From assembly GCA_964425105.1 (NCBI GenBank), contig CAYRLE010000003.1, positions 4,071-43,841 on the forward strand: a DNA stretch of 39,771 nucleotides, read 5' to 3'. The notes beneath the pieces are model-generated. The model saw only the letters and a list, made by a program, of their open reading frames with translations, did no database searches and was not told the origin of the DNA. This document shows positions 7,150-38,283 of the stretch, piece after piece; the stretch's first letter is position 1; each line of letters starts with the position of its first letter. Made by a program: the position numbers and the translations under genes. This DNA comes from an uncultured Gammaproteobacteria bacterium. GTDB taxonomy: Bacteria; Pseudomonadota; Gammaproteobacteria; SZUA-140.

Positions 7150-7215
7150 GGCAATGGGTGATAGGTGACGCCTGGCGCAGGGGAGACGCCCGCCACCCAC
7201 TCATCACTCGTCACG
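7150..7215. repeat. Degenerate heptamer inverted-repeat element
   Basis: Left arm ggcaatg-ggtgata-ggtgacg (7150-7170); right arm acccact-catcact-cgtcacg (7195-7215). Same unit family as the better-preserved copies. Confidence 0.5.
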
Positions 7216-7392
7216 CCATAACAATACGGACAGTGCGGGGGAGTTGTCTTTCATTCAAAAGACATCAAGTCTCGAAAACTGACTACCCCTTCTCTCAAAT
7301 CTTAAAGGATTCTACACGATGCACGCTATATTTGGTGTGATATGTGTAATTCAGCTAAACTCAAGCGGTTTTTTCCGGACAGGGCGGTGCTC

Positions 7393-8439
7393 ATGGCTAA
7401 CAGATTGTTGATCCTTTGCATGGTGGTCATGCTGGCCATCGGCACCACTGCCACAGCGGATACCGTCAAACTGAAACCCGACCACCCCGACCGCTACGTG
7501 GTGGTGAAGGGCGACACCCTGTGGGATATCTCCGCGCGCTTCCTGGCGGACCCCTGGCTGTGGCCGGAGATCTGGGCCATCAATCCGGAGATCAAGAACC
7601 CGCACCTGATCTATCCCGGCGATGTCATCAGCCTGGAATACGATGCCAATGGCAAACCAAGACTGACCCTGACGCGGGGCCGCCCCACCGTCAAGCTCTC
7701 CCCCGAGAAGCGCATCACGCCACTGAACCAGGCCATCCCCACCATCCCCATGGATGCCATCAAGCAGTTCCTGCTCTATCCGCGGGTGTTCACCCGCGAG
7801 GAAGTGGAGAAGGCGGGCTACATCGTGGCCCAGGATGAAGGCAGCCTGATCAGCGCCAGCGAGGACAAGGTGTACGTACGCGGCATTCGCCCCGAGGACG
7901 GCAACGACTACTACATCGTCCGCATCGGCGATGCCTACCGCAACCCCGGCGCCAAGAGAAAAGACGTGCTCGGCTTCGAGGCGCTGCAGATCGCTAGCGC
8001 CAAGGTGGTGAGTTTCGGTGATCCCAGTGCGGTGATTATCGGCAAGGCCAACCGCGAGATCCTCATCGGTGACCGCCTCTTCCCCATGATGGAAGAGGAA
8101 AAGCTGGAGCAGCATTTCCTGCCCCACGCCCCCGACTTCGCCATAGAGGGACAGATCATCTCCGTACTCGACGGCGTATCGCGCATTGGCCAGTATCATA
8201 CTGTGGTCCTCAACAAGGGGACAGGGGATGGCCTGGAAGTGGGGCATGTGCTGGCCATCTATCAGACCGGCGAAGTCACCCGGGACACGGTGGAACCACG
8301 GCGCGGCAAAAAAGTTCAGCTGCCCAATGAACGCGCCGGTGCGGTAATGGTGGTGCGCGCCTTCGAACGGGTCAGCTATGCACTGGTCATGGAGGCGACC
8401 CGCGACATGCGTCTCCTGGACACCTTCACCAATCCCTGA
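7393..8439 (+). CDS. LysM peptidoglycan-binding protein (TsaP-like)
   Basis: Signal peptide, then YVVVKGDTLWDISARFLADPWLWPEIWAINPEIKNPHLIYPGD; conserved position divergent from def and upstream of dprA. Start at MANRLL chosen over the ORF-track start at 7342. Confidence 0.9.
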   Translation: MANRLLILCMVVMLAIGTTATADTVKLKPDHPDRYVVVKGDTLWDISARFLADPWLWPEIWAINPEIKNPHLIYPGDVISLEYDANGKPRLTLTRGRPTVKLSPEKRITPLNQAIPTIPMDAIKQFLLYPRVFTREEVEKAGYIVAQDEGSLISASEDKVYVRGIRPEDGNDYYIVRIGDAYRNPGAKRKDVLGFEALQIASAKVVSFGDPSAVIIGKANREILIGDRLFPMMEEEKLEQHFLPHAPDFAIEGQIISVLDGVSRIGQYHTVVLNKGTGDGLEVGHVLAIYQTGEVTRDTVEPRRGKKVQLPNERAGAVMVVRAFERVSYALVMEATRDMRLLDTFTNP

Positions 8440-8446
8440 CGTCCTC

Positions 8447-8503
8447 CGTGAGAAGTGAGGCGTTAAGGTGAAAGCCGCCGCCTTCGCCCCCCTACTCATC
8501 ACT
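8447..8503. repeat. Degenerate heptamer inverted-repeat element
   Basis: cgtgaga-agtgagg-cgttaag (8447-8467) ... ccctact-catcact (8490-8503), just after the LysM gene stop. Confidence 0.5.
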
Positions 8504-8558
8504 CACACTTGATTCCGGGCGCCACCGCCTGTCATCATTCACAGTCCGCGAACCCATC

Positions 8559-9689
8559 ATGGACAAGGATGTCATGACACGCGACATGGATGACTTGTAT
8601 CACTGGCTGGCCCTGTATCACATTCCGGGTCTCGGCCCTATTGCCTGGCGCCGATTGCTGGCGCATTTCCTTACACCGCAACGCGTGCTGGCGGCCGGCG
8701 CCGAAGAACTGCGGGCCGCCGGCGCACAGCGGCAGCAGGTGCAGGCGCTGGCACAAGGACCAGACCAGGACGCCGTGCAAAGAGACCTGGACTGGCTGGA
8801 GCGCCCGGATCACCACCTCATCGTCCTCTCTGACCCCCGCTATCCTCCCCGCTTGCGGGAGATCCACGCCCCGCCGCCCCTACTCTACGTCAGCGGCGAC
8901 CCCCGCCTGCTGTCGCAGCCACAGCTGGCCATCGTCGGCAGCCGCAATCCCTCGCCCAGCGGTGAGGAAAACGCCTATGAATTTGCCCGCAGCCTGCCAT
9001 CCTGCGGACTGCTGGTCACCAGTGGCCTGGCACTGGGCATCGACGGCGCCGCCCACCGCGGGGCACTGGATGGCGGCGCCCCCACCATCGCCGTCACCGG
9101 CACCGGCCTGGACCACAGCTATCCCTGCCGCCACCGGGATCTGGCGCGGCGCATTGCAGGGGAAGGGGCGCTGGTCTCGGAACTCCCCGTGGGGACGCCG
9201 CCGCGGGCGGAAAACTTTCCGCGCCGCAACCGCATCATCAGTGGCCTCAGCCTGGGGGTGCTGGTGGCCGAGGCGGCGCTGCACAGCGGCTCGCTGATCA
9301 CCGCCCACCAGGCCCTGGAACAGGGACGCGAGGTGTTTGCCATACCCGGCTCCATCCACAACCCCCTGGCCCGTGGCTGCCATGCCCTGATCCGCCAGGG
9401 GGCCAAGCTGGTGGAGTCCCTGGAAGATATTGTGGAGGAACTGAGCATGCAGGGCACCCTGGCGACGCAAGCAAAGGCCATTGGTCGCACCAAAATGGTG
9501 CGTTATGGCGCCGAAGACGAAGCGGGACACGTCCTGGCGCAAATCGGCCACGACCCCACCGCCCTGGATACCCTGGTAGAGCGCAGCGGATTGACGGCCG
9601 AACGGCTTTCCTCCATCCTGTTATCATTGGAACTGGACAATCAGATCGCCGCCCTGCCCGGAGGCCTCTATCTGCGGCGCACTATCTAA
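8559..9689 (+). CDS. dprA: DNA-processing protein DprA (Smf)
   Basis: LAIVGSRNPS, TSGLALGIDGAAHRGAL, NFPRRNRIISGLS, SGSLITA, GREVFAIPGSI. Alternative starts at 8574 (preceded by AAGGA) or 8586. Confidence 0.97.
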   Translation: MDKDVMTRDMDDLYHWLALYHIPGLGPIAWRRLLAHFLTPQRVLAAGAEELRAAGAQRQQVQALAQGPDQDAVQRDLDWLERPDHHLIVLSDPRYPPRLREIHAPPPLLYVSGDPRLLSQPQLAIVGSRNPSPSGEENAYEFARSLPSCGLLVTSGLALGIDGAAHRGALDGGAPTIAVTGTGLDHSYPCRHRDLARRIAGEGALVSELPVGTPPRAENFPRRNRIISGLSLGVLVAEAALHSGSLITAHQALEQGREVFAIPGSIHNPLARGCHALIRQGAKLVESLEDIVEELSMQGTLATQAKAIGRTKMVRYGAEDEAGHVLAQIGHDPTALDTLVERSGLTAERLSSILLSLELDNQIAALPGGLYLRRTI

Positions 9690-36164: not shown

Positions 36165-36281
36165 ACCCCACCGAATGCAACTCAACGTTCAGAGGGCGCC
36201 AGCGGCCATCAAGACCTGCACGCCTATCCAACCGCGTTTTGGTGTACAATTTCCGCTCCCTGCAAGAGAAGGAGTGCAAGC

Positions 36282-36830
36282 GTGGAACAATTCCGGGGCA
36301 CCACTATATTATCGGTGCGGCGAGAGGGACAGGTCGTGCTGGGCGGCGACGGCCAGGTTTCCCTGGGCAACACCATCATGAAGGGCAACGCCCGCAAGGT
36401 GCGGCGCCTCTACAACGAGCGCGTGCTGGCGGGTTTCGCCGGCGGCACCGCAGATGCCTTCACTCTCTTCGAGCGCTTCGAGGCCAAGCTGGAGATGTAC
36501 TCGGGCAATCTCACCCGCGCCGCCGTGGAGCTGGCCAAGGACTGGCGCACCGACCGCATGCTGCGGCGCCTGGAGGCGCTGCTGGCGGTGGCCGATCACA
36601 CGGCCTCGCTGATCATCTCCGGCAACGGTGATGTCATCGAACCGGAGCACCAGCTCATGGCCATCGGCTCCGGCGGTCCCTACGCCCAGGCCGCCGCCCG
36701 CGCCCTGCTGGAAAACACCGAACTGGATGCCCGCGCCATCGTGGAAAAGGCCCTGGGCATCGCCGCGGATATCTGCGTCTACAGCAATCACAATGTCACC
36801 ATCGAAGAACTGAAGGGGAGCCAGGATTGA
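36282..36830 (+). CDS. hslV: ATP-dependent protease peptidase subunit
   Basis: GTG start with [39 protein letters not shown]. Confidence 0.97.
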
Positions 36831-36832
36831 CC

Positions 36833-38152
36833 ATGTCCGCCATGACACCCAGGGAAATCGTCCAGGAACTGGACAAGCACATCATCGGCCAGGACGCCGC
36901 CAAGCGCGCAGTGGGCATCGCCCTGCGCAACCGCTGGCGCCGCATGCAGGTGCCTGAGGAACTGCGCAACGAGATCAGCCCCAAGAACATTCTCATGATC
37001 GGCCCCACCGGCGTAGGCAAGACCGAAATCGCACGGCGCGTGGCGAAACTGGCCCAGGCGCCCTTCATCAAGGTGGAGGCCAGCAAGTTCACGGAAGTGG
37101 GTTATGTGGGACGCGACGTGGAATCCATCATCCGCGACCTGGTGGACATCTCCATCAAGATGACCCGCGAGCTGGAAATGGAGAAGGTGCGCCACCGCGC
37201 CGAGGAGAGCGCCGAGGACCGCATCCTGGACATCCTGCTGCCGCCGCCGCGGGATGGCGGCAGCGATGAAATGGCGGACACCCGCCAAAAATTCCGCAAG
37301 ATGCTGCGTGAAGGCAAGCTGGACGACAAGGAGATCGAGGTGGAGGTGCGCCTGGCGCCGGTGGGGGTGGAGATCATGACCCCGCCGGGCATGGAGGAGA
37401 TGAGCAGCCAGCTGCAGAACATGTTCCAGAACCTGGCCGGGGAGCGCACCCGCAAACGGCGCCTGCCGGTGAAGAAGGCCTTCAAGCTGCTGTGCGACGA
37501 GGAGGCCGCCAAGCTCATCAACGAGGAAGACATCAAGACCCGCGCCCTGGACAGCGTGGAGCAGAACGGCATCGTGTTCCTGGACGAGATCGACAAGATC
37601 GCGCGCCGCTCCACCGAGCACGGCGGCCCCGACGTCTCCCGCGAGGGTGTGCAGCGCGACCTGCTGCCCCTGGTGGAGGGCTGCACCGTGTCCACCAAAC
37701 ATGGCATGGTGAAAAGCGACCATATCCTGTTCATCGCCTCCGGCGCCTTTCACCTCAGCAAGCCCTCCGACCTGATCCCGGAACTGCAGGGGCGCCTGCC
37801 CATCCGCGTGGAACTGGAGGCGCTGACCGTGGAGGACTTCGTGCGCATCCTCACCGAGCCCGATGCCTCCCTCACCCAGCAGTACCAGGCCCTGATGGCC
37901 ACCGAGGGCGTCGAGTTGGCGTTCAGCAGCGACGGCATCGCGCGCATCGCCGAAATCGCCTGGCAGGTCAACGAACGCACCGAGAACATCGGTGCCCGGC
38001 GCCTGCACACAGTGATGGAGCGGGTCATGGAGACCCTTGCCTTCGAGGCCTCCGACCTGGGCGGCAAGGCCATCACCATCGACGCCGCCTATGTCAACCA
38101 GCACCTGGACCGGCTGGTGCAGGACGAGGATCTGAGCCGGTATATTTTGTGA
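36833..38152 (+). CDS. hslU: ATP-dependent protease ATPase subunit
   Basis: [28 protein letters not shown] pore motif, FLDEIDK, C-terminal DLSRYIL. Confidence 0.98.
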
Positions 38153-38215
38153 GGGTGGGGCTGTCTAATGAACCGCATTGGGTAAGAACGAACGACAGTG
38201 CTCCGTACGCCACAG

Positions 38216-38283
38216 GGTGATGCGTAATGCGTGATGAGTGATGGGGGCGGTTTCTCATTACTCATTACGCATCACTCATCACT
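38216..38283. repeat. Heptamer inverted-repeat hairpin (agtgatg/catcact type)
   Basis: ggtgatg-cgtaatg-cgtgatg-agtgatg (38216-38243), 12-nt loop, cattact-cattacg-catcact-catcact (38256-38283). Confidence 0.92.

Follow-up and report, generated by a model that had tools for sequence, protein, structure and literature searches.

Tandem heptamers have been catalogued in bacteria since 1990, to our knowledge without an accepted origin or role. Among them are the STRR heptamers of heterocystous cyanobacteria, reportedly described by Mazel et al. in 1990, for which we know of no settled function. S23p (PF05635) is a small four-helix-bundle protein found in the intervening sequences (IVS) of 23S rRNA. 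Here we analyse a family of intergenic hairpins with arms of tandem heptamers, first noticed in a 39,771-nt stretch of the draft genome of an uncultured gammaproteobacterium (the window; positions 4071-43841 of contig C3 in genome G000, where C numbers denote contigs and other G numbers denote genomes of relatives). The arms of the window hairpins are identical in kind to the arms that flank an S23p gene elsewhere in the same genome, and the kinship of the hairpins with IVS-type cassettes is well supported.

Both convergent heptamer arrays (Xanthomonas) and heptamers in the stem of an S23p IVS (Coxiella) are already published. In Xanthomonas campestris and X. axonopodis, about 190 arrays of the heptamer GGGAATC were described, with 70-75 of them paired 'in convergent orientation', one per strand (Rehm et al. 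2015, PMC4692102). In that paper, 89-93% of these arrays are intergenic, they lie on average 28 nt from the upstream open reading frame (ORF) versus 160 nt from the downstream one, and their length and sequence differ between close species. The paper reports only few paired repeats in Nostoc and Anabaena, and its main text makes no link to S23p, though the genus Xanthomonas gave the solved S23p structure. In the Coxiella burnetii IVS, terminal inverted repeats flank an S23p ORF and pair into a 28-bp stem, four heptads in length, with tandem heptamers of variable number in its 5' arm (Warrier et al. 2016, PMC4990558). This article also maps RNase III cuts in the stem, regards the element as selfish and describes Xanthomonas S23p as a toroidal homopentamer. 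Direct repeats of TAACTGA occur in marine Beggiatoaceae, some cyanobacteria and Bacteroidetes, where each genome has about 170 intergenic sets of 2-6 copies; their patchy occurrence points to horizontal spread (MacGregor 2015, PMC4679880), and the main text of that paper does not mention S23p. A full-text search of main texts found heptameric repeats tied to an IVS or four-helix-bundle protein only in the Coxiella paper, and none that interprets heptamer hairpins across a genome as derived from cassettes.

The G000 draft comprises 2.65 Mb in 143 contigs with 62% G+C. Across it, Tandem Repeats Finder (TRF) returned 584 rows of period 7 (plus 165 of period 14), versus 19, 200 and 88 rows for periods 5, 6 and 8. 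Arms with at least two perfect units of the heptad GTRAKGN numbered 521, versus 2 in a shuffled genome. Among adjacent arms no more than 200 nt apart, 193 pairs had the purine-rich (R) arm before the pyrimidine-rich (Y) arm, while 4 were YR, 6 RR and 5 YY. All four YR pairs are junctions of neighbouring hairpins, which leaves no true reverse pair. Since R..Y reverse-complements to R..Y, arm order is intrinsic to the element and carries no information on its orientation, and the heptads point 5' to 3' towards the centre from either side. The original prediction, made from the window alone, had proposed a constant architecture of period 7 and inverted arms with the purine arm always 5'. Both proposals extend to the whole family, in which the architecture is intrinsic and the order independent of strand: genome-wide, the arrays are mostly paired, their order is non-random and period 7 is in excess.

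A further proposal, that the unit sequence varies between loci, gave way to a single consensus with two sub-families and an additional ATACAAG dialect. The unit GTRAKGN, read on the purine strand, fits 457 of 635 merged arrays, with positions 1, 2, 4 and 6 conserved at 96-98%. A second count yielded 437 arrays with two or more GTRAKG cores, 56 ATACAAG-type arrays and roughly 10 of an AGGACTG type, and most of the leftover arrays (118 of 198) are intragenic and chance-like. Individual loci keep to a single sub-family: 110 are GTRATGN (T family), 53 are GTRAGGN (G family) and 9 are mixed. Many contigs end in arms or beside runs of N (for example C3:5, C20:5, C18:35, C31:57 and C141:12). Heptamer arms break short-read assemblies, which makes our repeat counts lower bounds. 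Together, these data show one GTRAKGN heptad family of about 200 hairpins with a fixed architecture.

The arm itself has a preferred length. Among arms clear of contig ends, 231 of 467 contain four units and 93 contain five. In the four-unit arms, the letters at positions 3 and 7 vary with the index of the unit; chi-square tests gave p 4e-10 and 5e-16 for the T family and 2e-3 and 3e-7 for the G family, and a T-family arm reads roughly GTGATGA GTRATGM GTGATGA GTGATGG. Four units thus make up one arm, a module of 28 nt, and because both arms share this position-specific consensus, they are terminal inverted repeats common to the copies. Within a sub-family, the two arms of one locus are no more alike at positions 3, 5 and 7 than arms taken from separate loci (|z| < 2). 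Like transposon ends, each arm has moved away from the family consensus independently. The hairpins fold with a median of -41 kcal/mol over about 30 bp.

The arms could also be ordinary simple-sequence repeats, grown in place by 7-nt slippage, with the hairpins as a by-product and with arrays beside S23p genes since arrays are everywhere. Unit number does differ between copies. Hairpins at C108:11-79, C111:5564-5825 and C114:5281-5432 share one 13-nt spacer but possess 5 or 6 Y units, some of them standing in tandem about 190 nt apart, and these same-spacer copies are direct evidence for single-unit slippage between recent duplicates. The absence of a correlation between left and right unit numbers (r 0.05) also favours slippage, as does a 7-nt deletion at 12897 in contigs of three sequencing runs, although high depth at this point suggests reads from many loci. 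Slippage is a hypothesis for heptamer excess that is cited by Rehm et al. (PMC4692102). Conversely, slippage does not account for an arm length that peaks at four units with no decay, for letters that depend on unit index, for an arm order of 193 to 0, for the enrichment of arrays beside S23p genes over control windows (given below), or for congeners that lack the period-7 excess. We consider slippage unlikely as the source of the family, and the four-unit mode and unit-index-specific letters agree with the original prediction that random microsatellite slippage is not the cause.

Between the arms, no conserved internal sequence was found among the copies, as 170 of 176 spacers are singletons that are unrelated between loci, and the family is therefore no classic miniature inverted-repeat transposable element (MITE) with a conserved core, as had been anticipated. 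The spacers had also been called unrelated, which is true of their sequences but not of their composition: the left half is 62% purine and the right half 37% (p 5e-20). With this purine-then-pyrimidine polarity, the spacers look like decayed inner units, not captured DNA.

Only one short-range R..Y pair carries an ORF. Among pairs 200-4000 nt apart, this pair encloses the single PF05635 gene of G000 (C55:7335-7640), which lies between gmd and fcl in the same orientation and is flanked by GTRATGN-family arms, an R arm of six units (7220-7261) and a Y arm of four (7671-7698). The other four pairs in this range contain ordinary genes over 1-2.5 kb. The suggestion to look for copies with an ORF in the spacer thus led to one match, on a contig other than that of the window. 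A decayed AGGACTG-like arm lies outside the GTAATGA arm at this locus. The protein matches PDB 2GSC with an E-value of 3e-31 and is also matched by TIGR02436, while its match to the Avd model of diversity-generating retroelements is weak and below the cut-off (E 2e-4). With regard to a MITE partner, the only ORF-bearing copy encodes S23p and not a known transposase; S23p is a gene associated with the arms, a putative partner rather than a demonstrated enzyme. We also considered GTRAGGN as an older relic than GTRATGN, since only the latter has an S23p master copy, but equal unit purity (0.87 vs 0.88) does not support this.

We determined how widely S23p genes and heptamer arms occur together. 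PF05635 is present in 15 of 41 relatives, and inverted period-7 arms were found at all 12 S23p loci inspected in this set. The dialect of the S23p arms is GTAATGA in G000, GTGAGGN in G003 and G013, AGGACTR in G023, ATACAAG-type in G009, G017 and G022, and TAACTGA in G034, while the arms in G005, G020, G024 and G002 are degenerate and A/G-rich. Genome-wide hits to four GTRAKGN units in a row numbered 464 in G000, 202 in G013, 125 in G003, 60 in G023 and 46 in G018. Three-unit AGGACTR hits numbered 70 in G003, 60 in G023, 16 in G018, 12 in G000, 6 in G013 and 5 in G001, and ATACAAG hits 42 in G000, 24 in G009, 17 in G017 and 6 in G022. At least six hits to any of these three patterns occurred in 8 of the 41 genomes, all of which have PF05635, and in none of the 26 genomes without it (one-sided Fisher p 7e-5, the eight genomes representing three lineages only). 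Of 401 genomes sampled evenly across the class, 51 contained an S23p homologue. A period-7 array was present on the flank of 24 of the 36 scored S23p loci, which exclude the G176 locus, versus 5.8% of 258 control windows. Unit similarity increased with S23p identity (Mantel r 0.35, reached by none of 2000 permutations). These results show joint inheritance of the S23p gene and the dialect of its arms across Gammaproteobacteria. The correlation means that gene and arms travel together; recognition of the arms by S23p does not follow from it.

At two sites, genomes differ in whether an element is present and whether it carries the gene. The gap between rpsI and tRNA-Gln has no insert in G019 and G011, where it measures about 14 and 21 nt, contains an S23p cassette in nine genomes (G005, G009, G015, G017, G020, G022, G024, G050 and G051), and contains a gene-less hairpin in G000, G006, G041 and G047. 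The G000 hairpin at this site consists of four GTGAGGN units, a 19-nt spacer and four more units. In G006, 13 of the first 15 bases of the hairpin spacer match the S23p start region of G005, and the spacer is a deletion remnant. In most genomes the elements begin 3-5 nt past the rpsI stop, but they end at varied distances from the tRNA; some are therefore independent arrivals at one hot spot. No target duplication was seen when the empty G011 site was compared with the filled G000 site, two genomes of different genera. The gmd/fcl junction is empty in eight genomes (G002, G004, G005, G007, G012, G014, G016 and G019) and holds an S23p cassette in G000 and in all four genomes of genus g2. The S23p proteins at this junction are only 41-68% identical and their arms use different dialects, which indicates that whole cassettes were exchanged. 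In G017 about 870 nt are inserted at the junction (contig C201 of that genome), which hold two small ORFs, and small cassettes therefore have a hot spot there. It is thus shown that one and the same site can be empty, carry a cassette or carry a gene-less hairpin.

A closer comparison comes from the congeners, G001 and G002. Period-7 rows occur at 220 per Mb in G000, versus 41 in G001 (337-kb sample) and 37 in G002 (240-kb sample). Gaps in G001 that are orthologous to G000 hairpins contain degenerate GTRAKG hairpins, with at least two cores in 5 of 14 gaps versus 1 of 38 control gaps (Fisher p 0.004), while the corresponding counts in G002 are 0 of 10 and 0 of 11. The relics in G001 imply that the family is older than the split between G000 and G001. 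In G000, where the matching S23p is present, the family is pristine; in G001 it is decayed. PF05635 was not found in the G001 assembly, where the gmd/fcl gap is an unassembled contig break. The genus is a natural experiment, in which G000 has S23p and pristine arms while G001 has no S23p that was found and degenerate relics. The original prediction had proposed a search of orthologous gaps for empty sites and target duplications. Empty sites did emerge at rpsI/tRNA-Gln and gmd/fcl, but no target duplication was seen, and exact empty sites in the congeners are not resolvable, since their coding identity is only about 80% and divergence between genes is too great. Closer relatives among metagenome contigs reached at best 68-70% amino-acid identity and were of no use for empty sites. 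Contigs from four DNA sequencing runs include relatives that are about 90-94% alike, some of which bridge or stop at hairpin gaps.

Other repeats were observed in the congeners. The two contig ends that border the gmd/fcl gap in G001 (its contigs C31 and C61) both consist of a tandem repeat of about 98 nt (GTCATTCCGAGCGCAGCGAGGAATC...), which belongs to a different repeat family. A gap orthologous to window positions 17256-17469 contains, in G001 (C35:3990-4075), a hairpin of another dialect with GGACAGA/AGACAGA units, which are near the GACAGAT heptamer reported for the Coxiella IVS stem. Just upstream of tRNA-Gln, contig C122 of G002 bears a solo array of five ATCTGAT-type heptamers. The S23p cassette of G002 (C116:4778-7114) lies inside what looks like a single DNA-methylase-like ORF, which it splits, and has degenerate purine and pyrimidine arms; its protein is of another type and 38% identical.

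We examined the position of the hairpins relative to genes, which were called with a crude self-trained caller (2239 genes, 86% coding). None of the 193 RY pairs lies inside a gene. Convergent gaps hold 45 pairs (227 gaps), tandem gaps 112 (1631 gaps) and divergent gaps 14 (238 gaps), with 22 pairs at contig edges. In tandem gaps, the element starts a median of 7 nt past the upstream stop and ends 54-63 nt before the next start. The stop codon lies within the arm at 47 of 202 gene-3' sides (offsets -4, -11 and -18), where it is the T-R-A of heptad one, two or three, and at 71 more sides it is no more than 15 nt away. That the elements sit at stop codons is thus shown. The purine arm holds TGA or TAA in all three frames, for ribosomes arriving from either side, and insertion into the last codons of a gene would therefore be harmless. 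We rejected stop codons as the cause of the R-then-Y order, as the ATACAAG and GGGAATC dialects contain none and the explanation is not general. Rho avoidance, in which the C-rich arm would at no time be single-stranded, was also considered as a possible cause of this order.

Strong hairpins directly past genes, commonest in convergent gaps, are also what intrinsic (Rho-independent) terminators would look like. A run of TTTT within 12 nt after the stem was however found in only 7% of 191 sense-side flanks, versus 2% on the control side. Many of the hairpins are inside apparent operons, such as hslV-hslU-next gene and rpsI-tRNA, and within the hairpin at 12779-12919 there is a distinct terminator-like hairpin followed by a T run. 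That the family consists of intrinsic terminators is very unlikely.

A similar placement is typical of REP/REPIN-type families mobilised by RAYT, a Y1 tyrosine transposase, and like these the G000 elements are short, intergenic, inverted doublets at gene 3' ends. G000 has two Y1_Tnp genes. Neither has an arm within 2.5 kb, however, the same Y1 gene family occurs in the array-less G001 and G002, a single arm is not palindromic, and the GTAG-type head usual in REPs is absent. We find mobilisation by RAYT scarcely credible. The inward course of the heptads led us to consider addition by a reverse transcriptase or telomerase-like enzyme, and this candidate was dropped when RVT_1 was not found in G000 or G013. 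The dedicated generating mechanism that the original prediction inferred from a conserved architecture is unproven, with no RVT_1 found in the genome and no arms near Y1 transposase genes.

Taken together, we lean towards the explanation that the window hairpins are gene-less relatives of an IVS-type S23p cassette, either deletion derivatives or stem-only copies, and that they are processed as RNA stems. Under this explanation, the element would be transcribed with the upstream gene and the transcript would fold into an imperfect double-stranded RNA stem of about 30 bp. By analogy with the IVS, RNase III would cut this stem, or the stem would block 3' exonucleases, and the neighbouring cistrons would be uncoupled. 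Elements would persist only in a narrow neutral slot around the stop codon, and a copy in the last codons of a gene would still terminate it through the TGA or TAA of its purine arm. The S23p pentamer may read or maintain the heptads. An rnc gene is present in G000.

Several results weigh against this explanation. G002 has an S23p gene without a period-7 excess (37 vs 220 rows per Mb), and the gene alone does not make the family. Gaps orthologous to G000 hairpins are about 51 nt shorter in G001 and G002 (medians 149 vs 97 nt), which is less than the median element of 84 nt, and many sites therefore appear overwritten and not simply filled. The correlation between gene and arms may reflect joint inheritance alone, as the compared genomes are kin, and three or four dialects are found in G000 together with one S23p gene in a 143-contig draft. 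Copying and pasting of whole elements is unsupported, since spacers are unrelated and no target duplication was seen. There was no compensatory covariation between the arms at positions 3, 5 and 7 (|z| < 2), which indicates that perfect pairing is not the conserved feature. No asymmetry with transcription direction was seen. Cleavage of the stems of about 30 bp by RNase III is probable by analogy with the Coxiella IVS. A separate look for an RNA-level wobble signature at position 3, namely G enriched in upstream arms and A in downstream ones, gave a trend only (p 0.08).

Some of these results could also fit heptad arrays that act at the DNA level, bound head to head by an oligomeric protein, S23p or other, for chromosome or transcription control. 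Invariant positions, with each arm read on its own strand, are kept equally in both arms without compensatory change, regardless of transcription direction, which fits recognition of sequence and not of pairing. Binding to heptads, both tandem and inverted, is known from the omega repressor of plasmid pSM19035, and S23p relatives crystallise as pentameric rings while the arms hold 4-5 units. Against DNA binding, the arrays follow stop codons and not promoters, with pairs in only 14 of 238 divergent gaps, S23p is only a putative DNA binder, and G002 has the gene without the arrays. We regard control by DNA binding as distinctly unlikely. The cassette explanation can itself be taken further: a toroidal S23p pentamer would bind four or five heptads of its own dialect and drive their renewal or spread, and the STRR, GGGAATC, TAACTGA and G000 families would be non-autonomous progeny of an unrecognised class of mobile cassettes. 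We offer this extension tentatively and think it rather unlikely.

We returned to the window to describe its loci individually, with R arms on the plus strand and Y arms on the minus strand. Arms were located with a scan for heptads with at most one mismatch. TRF reported period-7 arrays at 12883, 14849/14900, 17323/17388, 19719, 29334/29383, 36141 and 38217/38254. When the eight paired loci were folded as RNA, six gave -44 to -79 kcal/mol (z -8 to -13), and the spacers of the nine loci, 10-74 nt long, contain no ORF. The nine loci of the original prediction comprise seven clear ones and two decayed ones, at 7150 and 8447. The first of the latter is a hairpin in the divergent gap between def and a LysM-protein gene (7150-7215), with two degenerate units per side (Y arm 7201-7214) and a fold equal to that of shuffled sequences (z -0.59). 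The second has a degenerate R arm (GTGAGAA GTGAGGC, 8448-8461), 8 nt past the stop of the LysM-protein gene, which pairs with a degenerate Y arm at 8489-8502; both were found with the heptad scan and the fold (8445-8515, z -3.08).

The locus behind topA is of the ATACAAG dialect. Its R arm (12779-12808; AGATACA AGGTACA AGGGGAA AGATACA AG), found with the heptad scan, begins 6 nt past the topA stop, and its Y arm of CTTGTAT units (12883-12919) abuts the end of a convergent lysR-type gene. The Y arm, like all those described below unless stated otherwise, was found by TRF, the heptad scan and the fold, which for this locus (12776-12922) gave -78.7 kcal/mol (z -12.9). As read from the sequence and fold, the cargo between the arms (12819-12875) consists of two small inner hairpins, GGGCCC-GATG-GGGCCC with a T run and TGCGCC-AAA-GGCGCA. 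The former looks like the real topA terminator, which suggests that the big ATACAAG stem wraps a pre-existing bidirectional terminator region.

The remaining loci belong to the GTRAKGN family. Starting at the base after the stop of a TauE-family gene, a GTRAGGN R arm of four perfect and one degenerate unit (14849-14883) pairs with a 4-unit Y arm (14899-14926; fold -49.7 kcal/mol, z -11.2). A GTRATGN R arm, likewise of four perfect and one degenerate unit (17323-17357), pairs with a 4-unit Y arm (17387-17414) in a convergent gap (-47.5 kcal/mol, z -8.2). In a minus-strand tandem gap, a 5-unit R arm of mixed GTGAAG/GTAAGG/GTGATG units (19665-19699) pairs with a 5-unit Y arm (19720-19754; -44.8 kcal/mol, z -9.2). 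The R arm at 29336-29363, of four perfect units, supplies the stop codon of a ubiD-family ORF (27865-29346) and pairs with a Y arm of five perfect units (29385-29419; -43.8 kcal/mol, z -8.2). Between a xerC-type gene and hslV lies a solo Y arm of four units, three of them perfect (36136-36163; TRF and heptad scan), for which no R partner was detected. Finally, on the 3' side of hslU, four perfect R units (38217-38244) pair with four perfect Y units (38255-38282) across a 10-nt spacer (-44.6 kcal/mol, z -9.4).

The genes around these loci are housekeeping genes: def, dprA, topA, lysR-type, TauE-family, sulfite-reductase-like, fad genes, ubiD, xerC-type, hslV and hslU. The best matches of TopA are 71-72% identical (Thiodiazotropha, Sedimenticolaceae, Tenderia and Methylococcales records). 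Neither Rfam models nor a tRNA scan gave a match in the window, which contains no rRNA. Adjoining the TauE sulfite-exporter gene, positions 14953-17256 encode a nitrite/sulfite-reductase-type protein fused to a C-terminal TusA sulfurtransferase domain; the exporter gene is absent at this place in G001 and G002 (gaps of 153 and 255 nt). Directly after the hslU hairpin (38217-38282), a repeat of 17-nt period (AACCACCACAACCATG, 2.8 copies; 38316-38360) with two in-frame ATGs lies just upstream of a GBBH-like gene, where a leader peptide or an ambiguous start site is possible.

G000 is an unusually clean case of a heptamer family, with one consensus, a fixed 4-unit arm, a strict order, about 200 copies, one intact candidate partner gene and two congeners in which the family was lost or never expanded. 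Should the link to S23p cassettes prove true, the nature of heptamer repeats and the role of the widespread 'IVS protein' become one testable system. For annotation, it matters that the hairpins give stop codons to about a quarter of the adjacent genes.

Compared with known systems, the G000 family resembles the REP/BIME/REPIN elements of enterobacteria and pseudomonads in being short, palindromic, intergenic, placed at gene 3' ends, arranged as inverted doublets, lineage-specific and probably active on mRNA ends. Unlike these, its arms are tandem heptads and not single palindromes, and there is no association with RAYT. It shares with the cyanobacterial STRR tandem heptamers that are mostly intergenic and of several unit types per genome; it differs in phylum and in the prevalence of paired inverted arms. 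As described in PMC4679880, the TAACTGA sets are direct repeats just upstream of start codons with one inverted case, whereas the G000 elements are inverted pairs just past stops. The S23p gene of relative G034 is nonetheless flanked by the same TAACTGA dialect as these Beggiatoaceae repeats. Like the Xanthomonas arrays of PMC4692102, those of G000 are gammaproteobacterial, intergenic, paired one per strand, nearer to the upstream gene and variable in length and sequence among close species. The G-rich Xanthomonas unit forms G-quadruplexes in vitro, while the GTRAKGN consensus has no run of three G except in its GTGAGGG variant. With respect to the Coxiella IVS, the G000 cassette lies between protein genes (gmd and fcl) and not in rRNA, and the nine window loci lack an ORF; hundreds of such gene-less copies, as found here, are not described in PMC4990558. 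In its construction, however, the G000 element is like the Coxiella IVS with its 28-bp stem: its own stem is built of heptamers and has a median of about 30 bp, with an arm mode of four units, or 28 nt.

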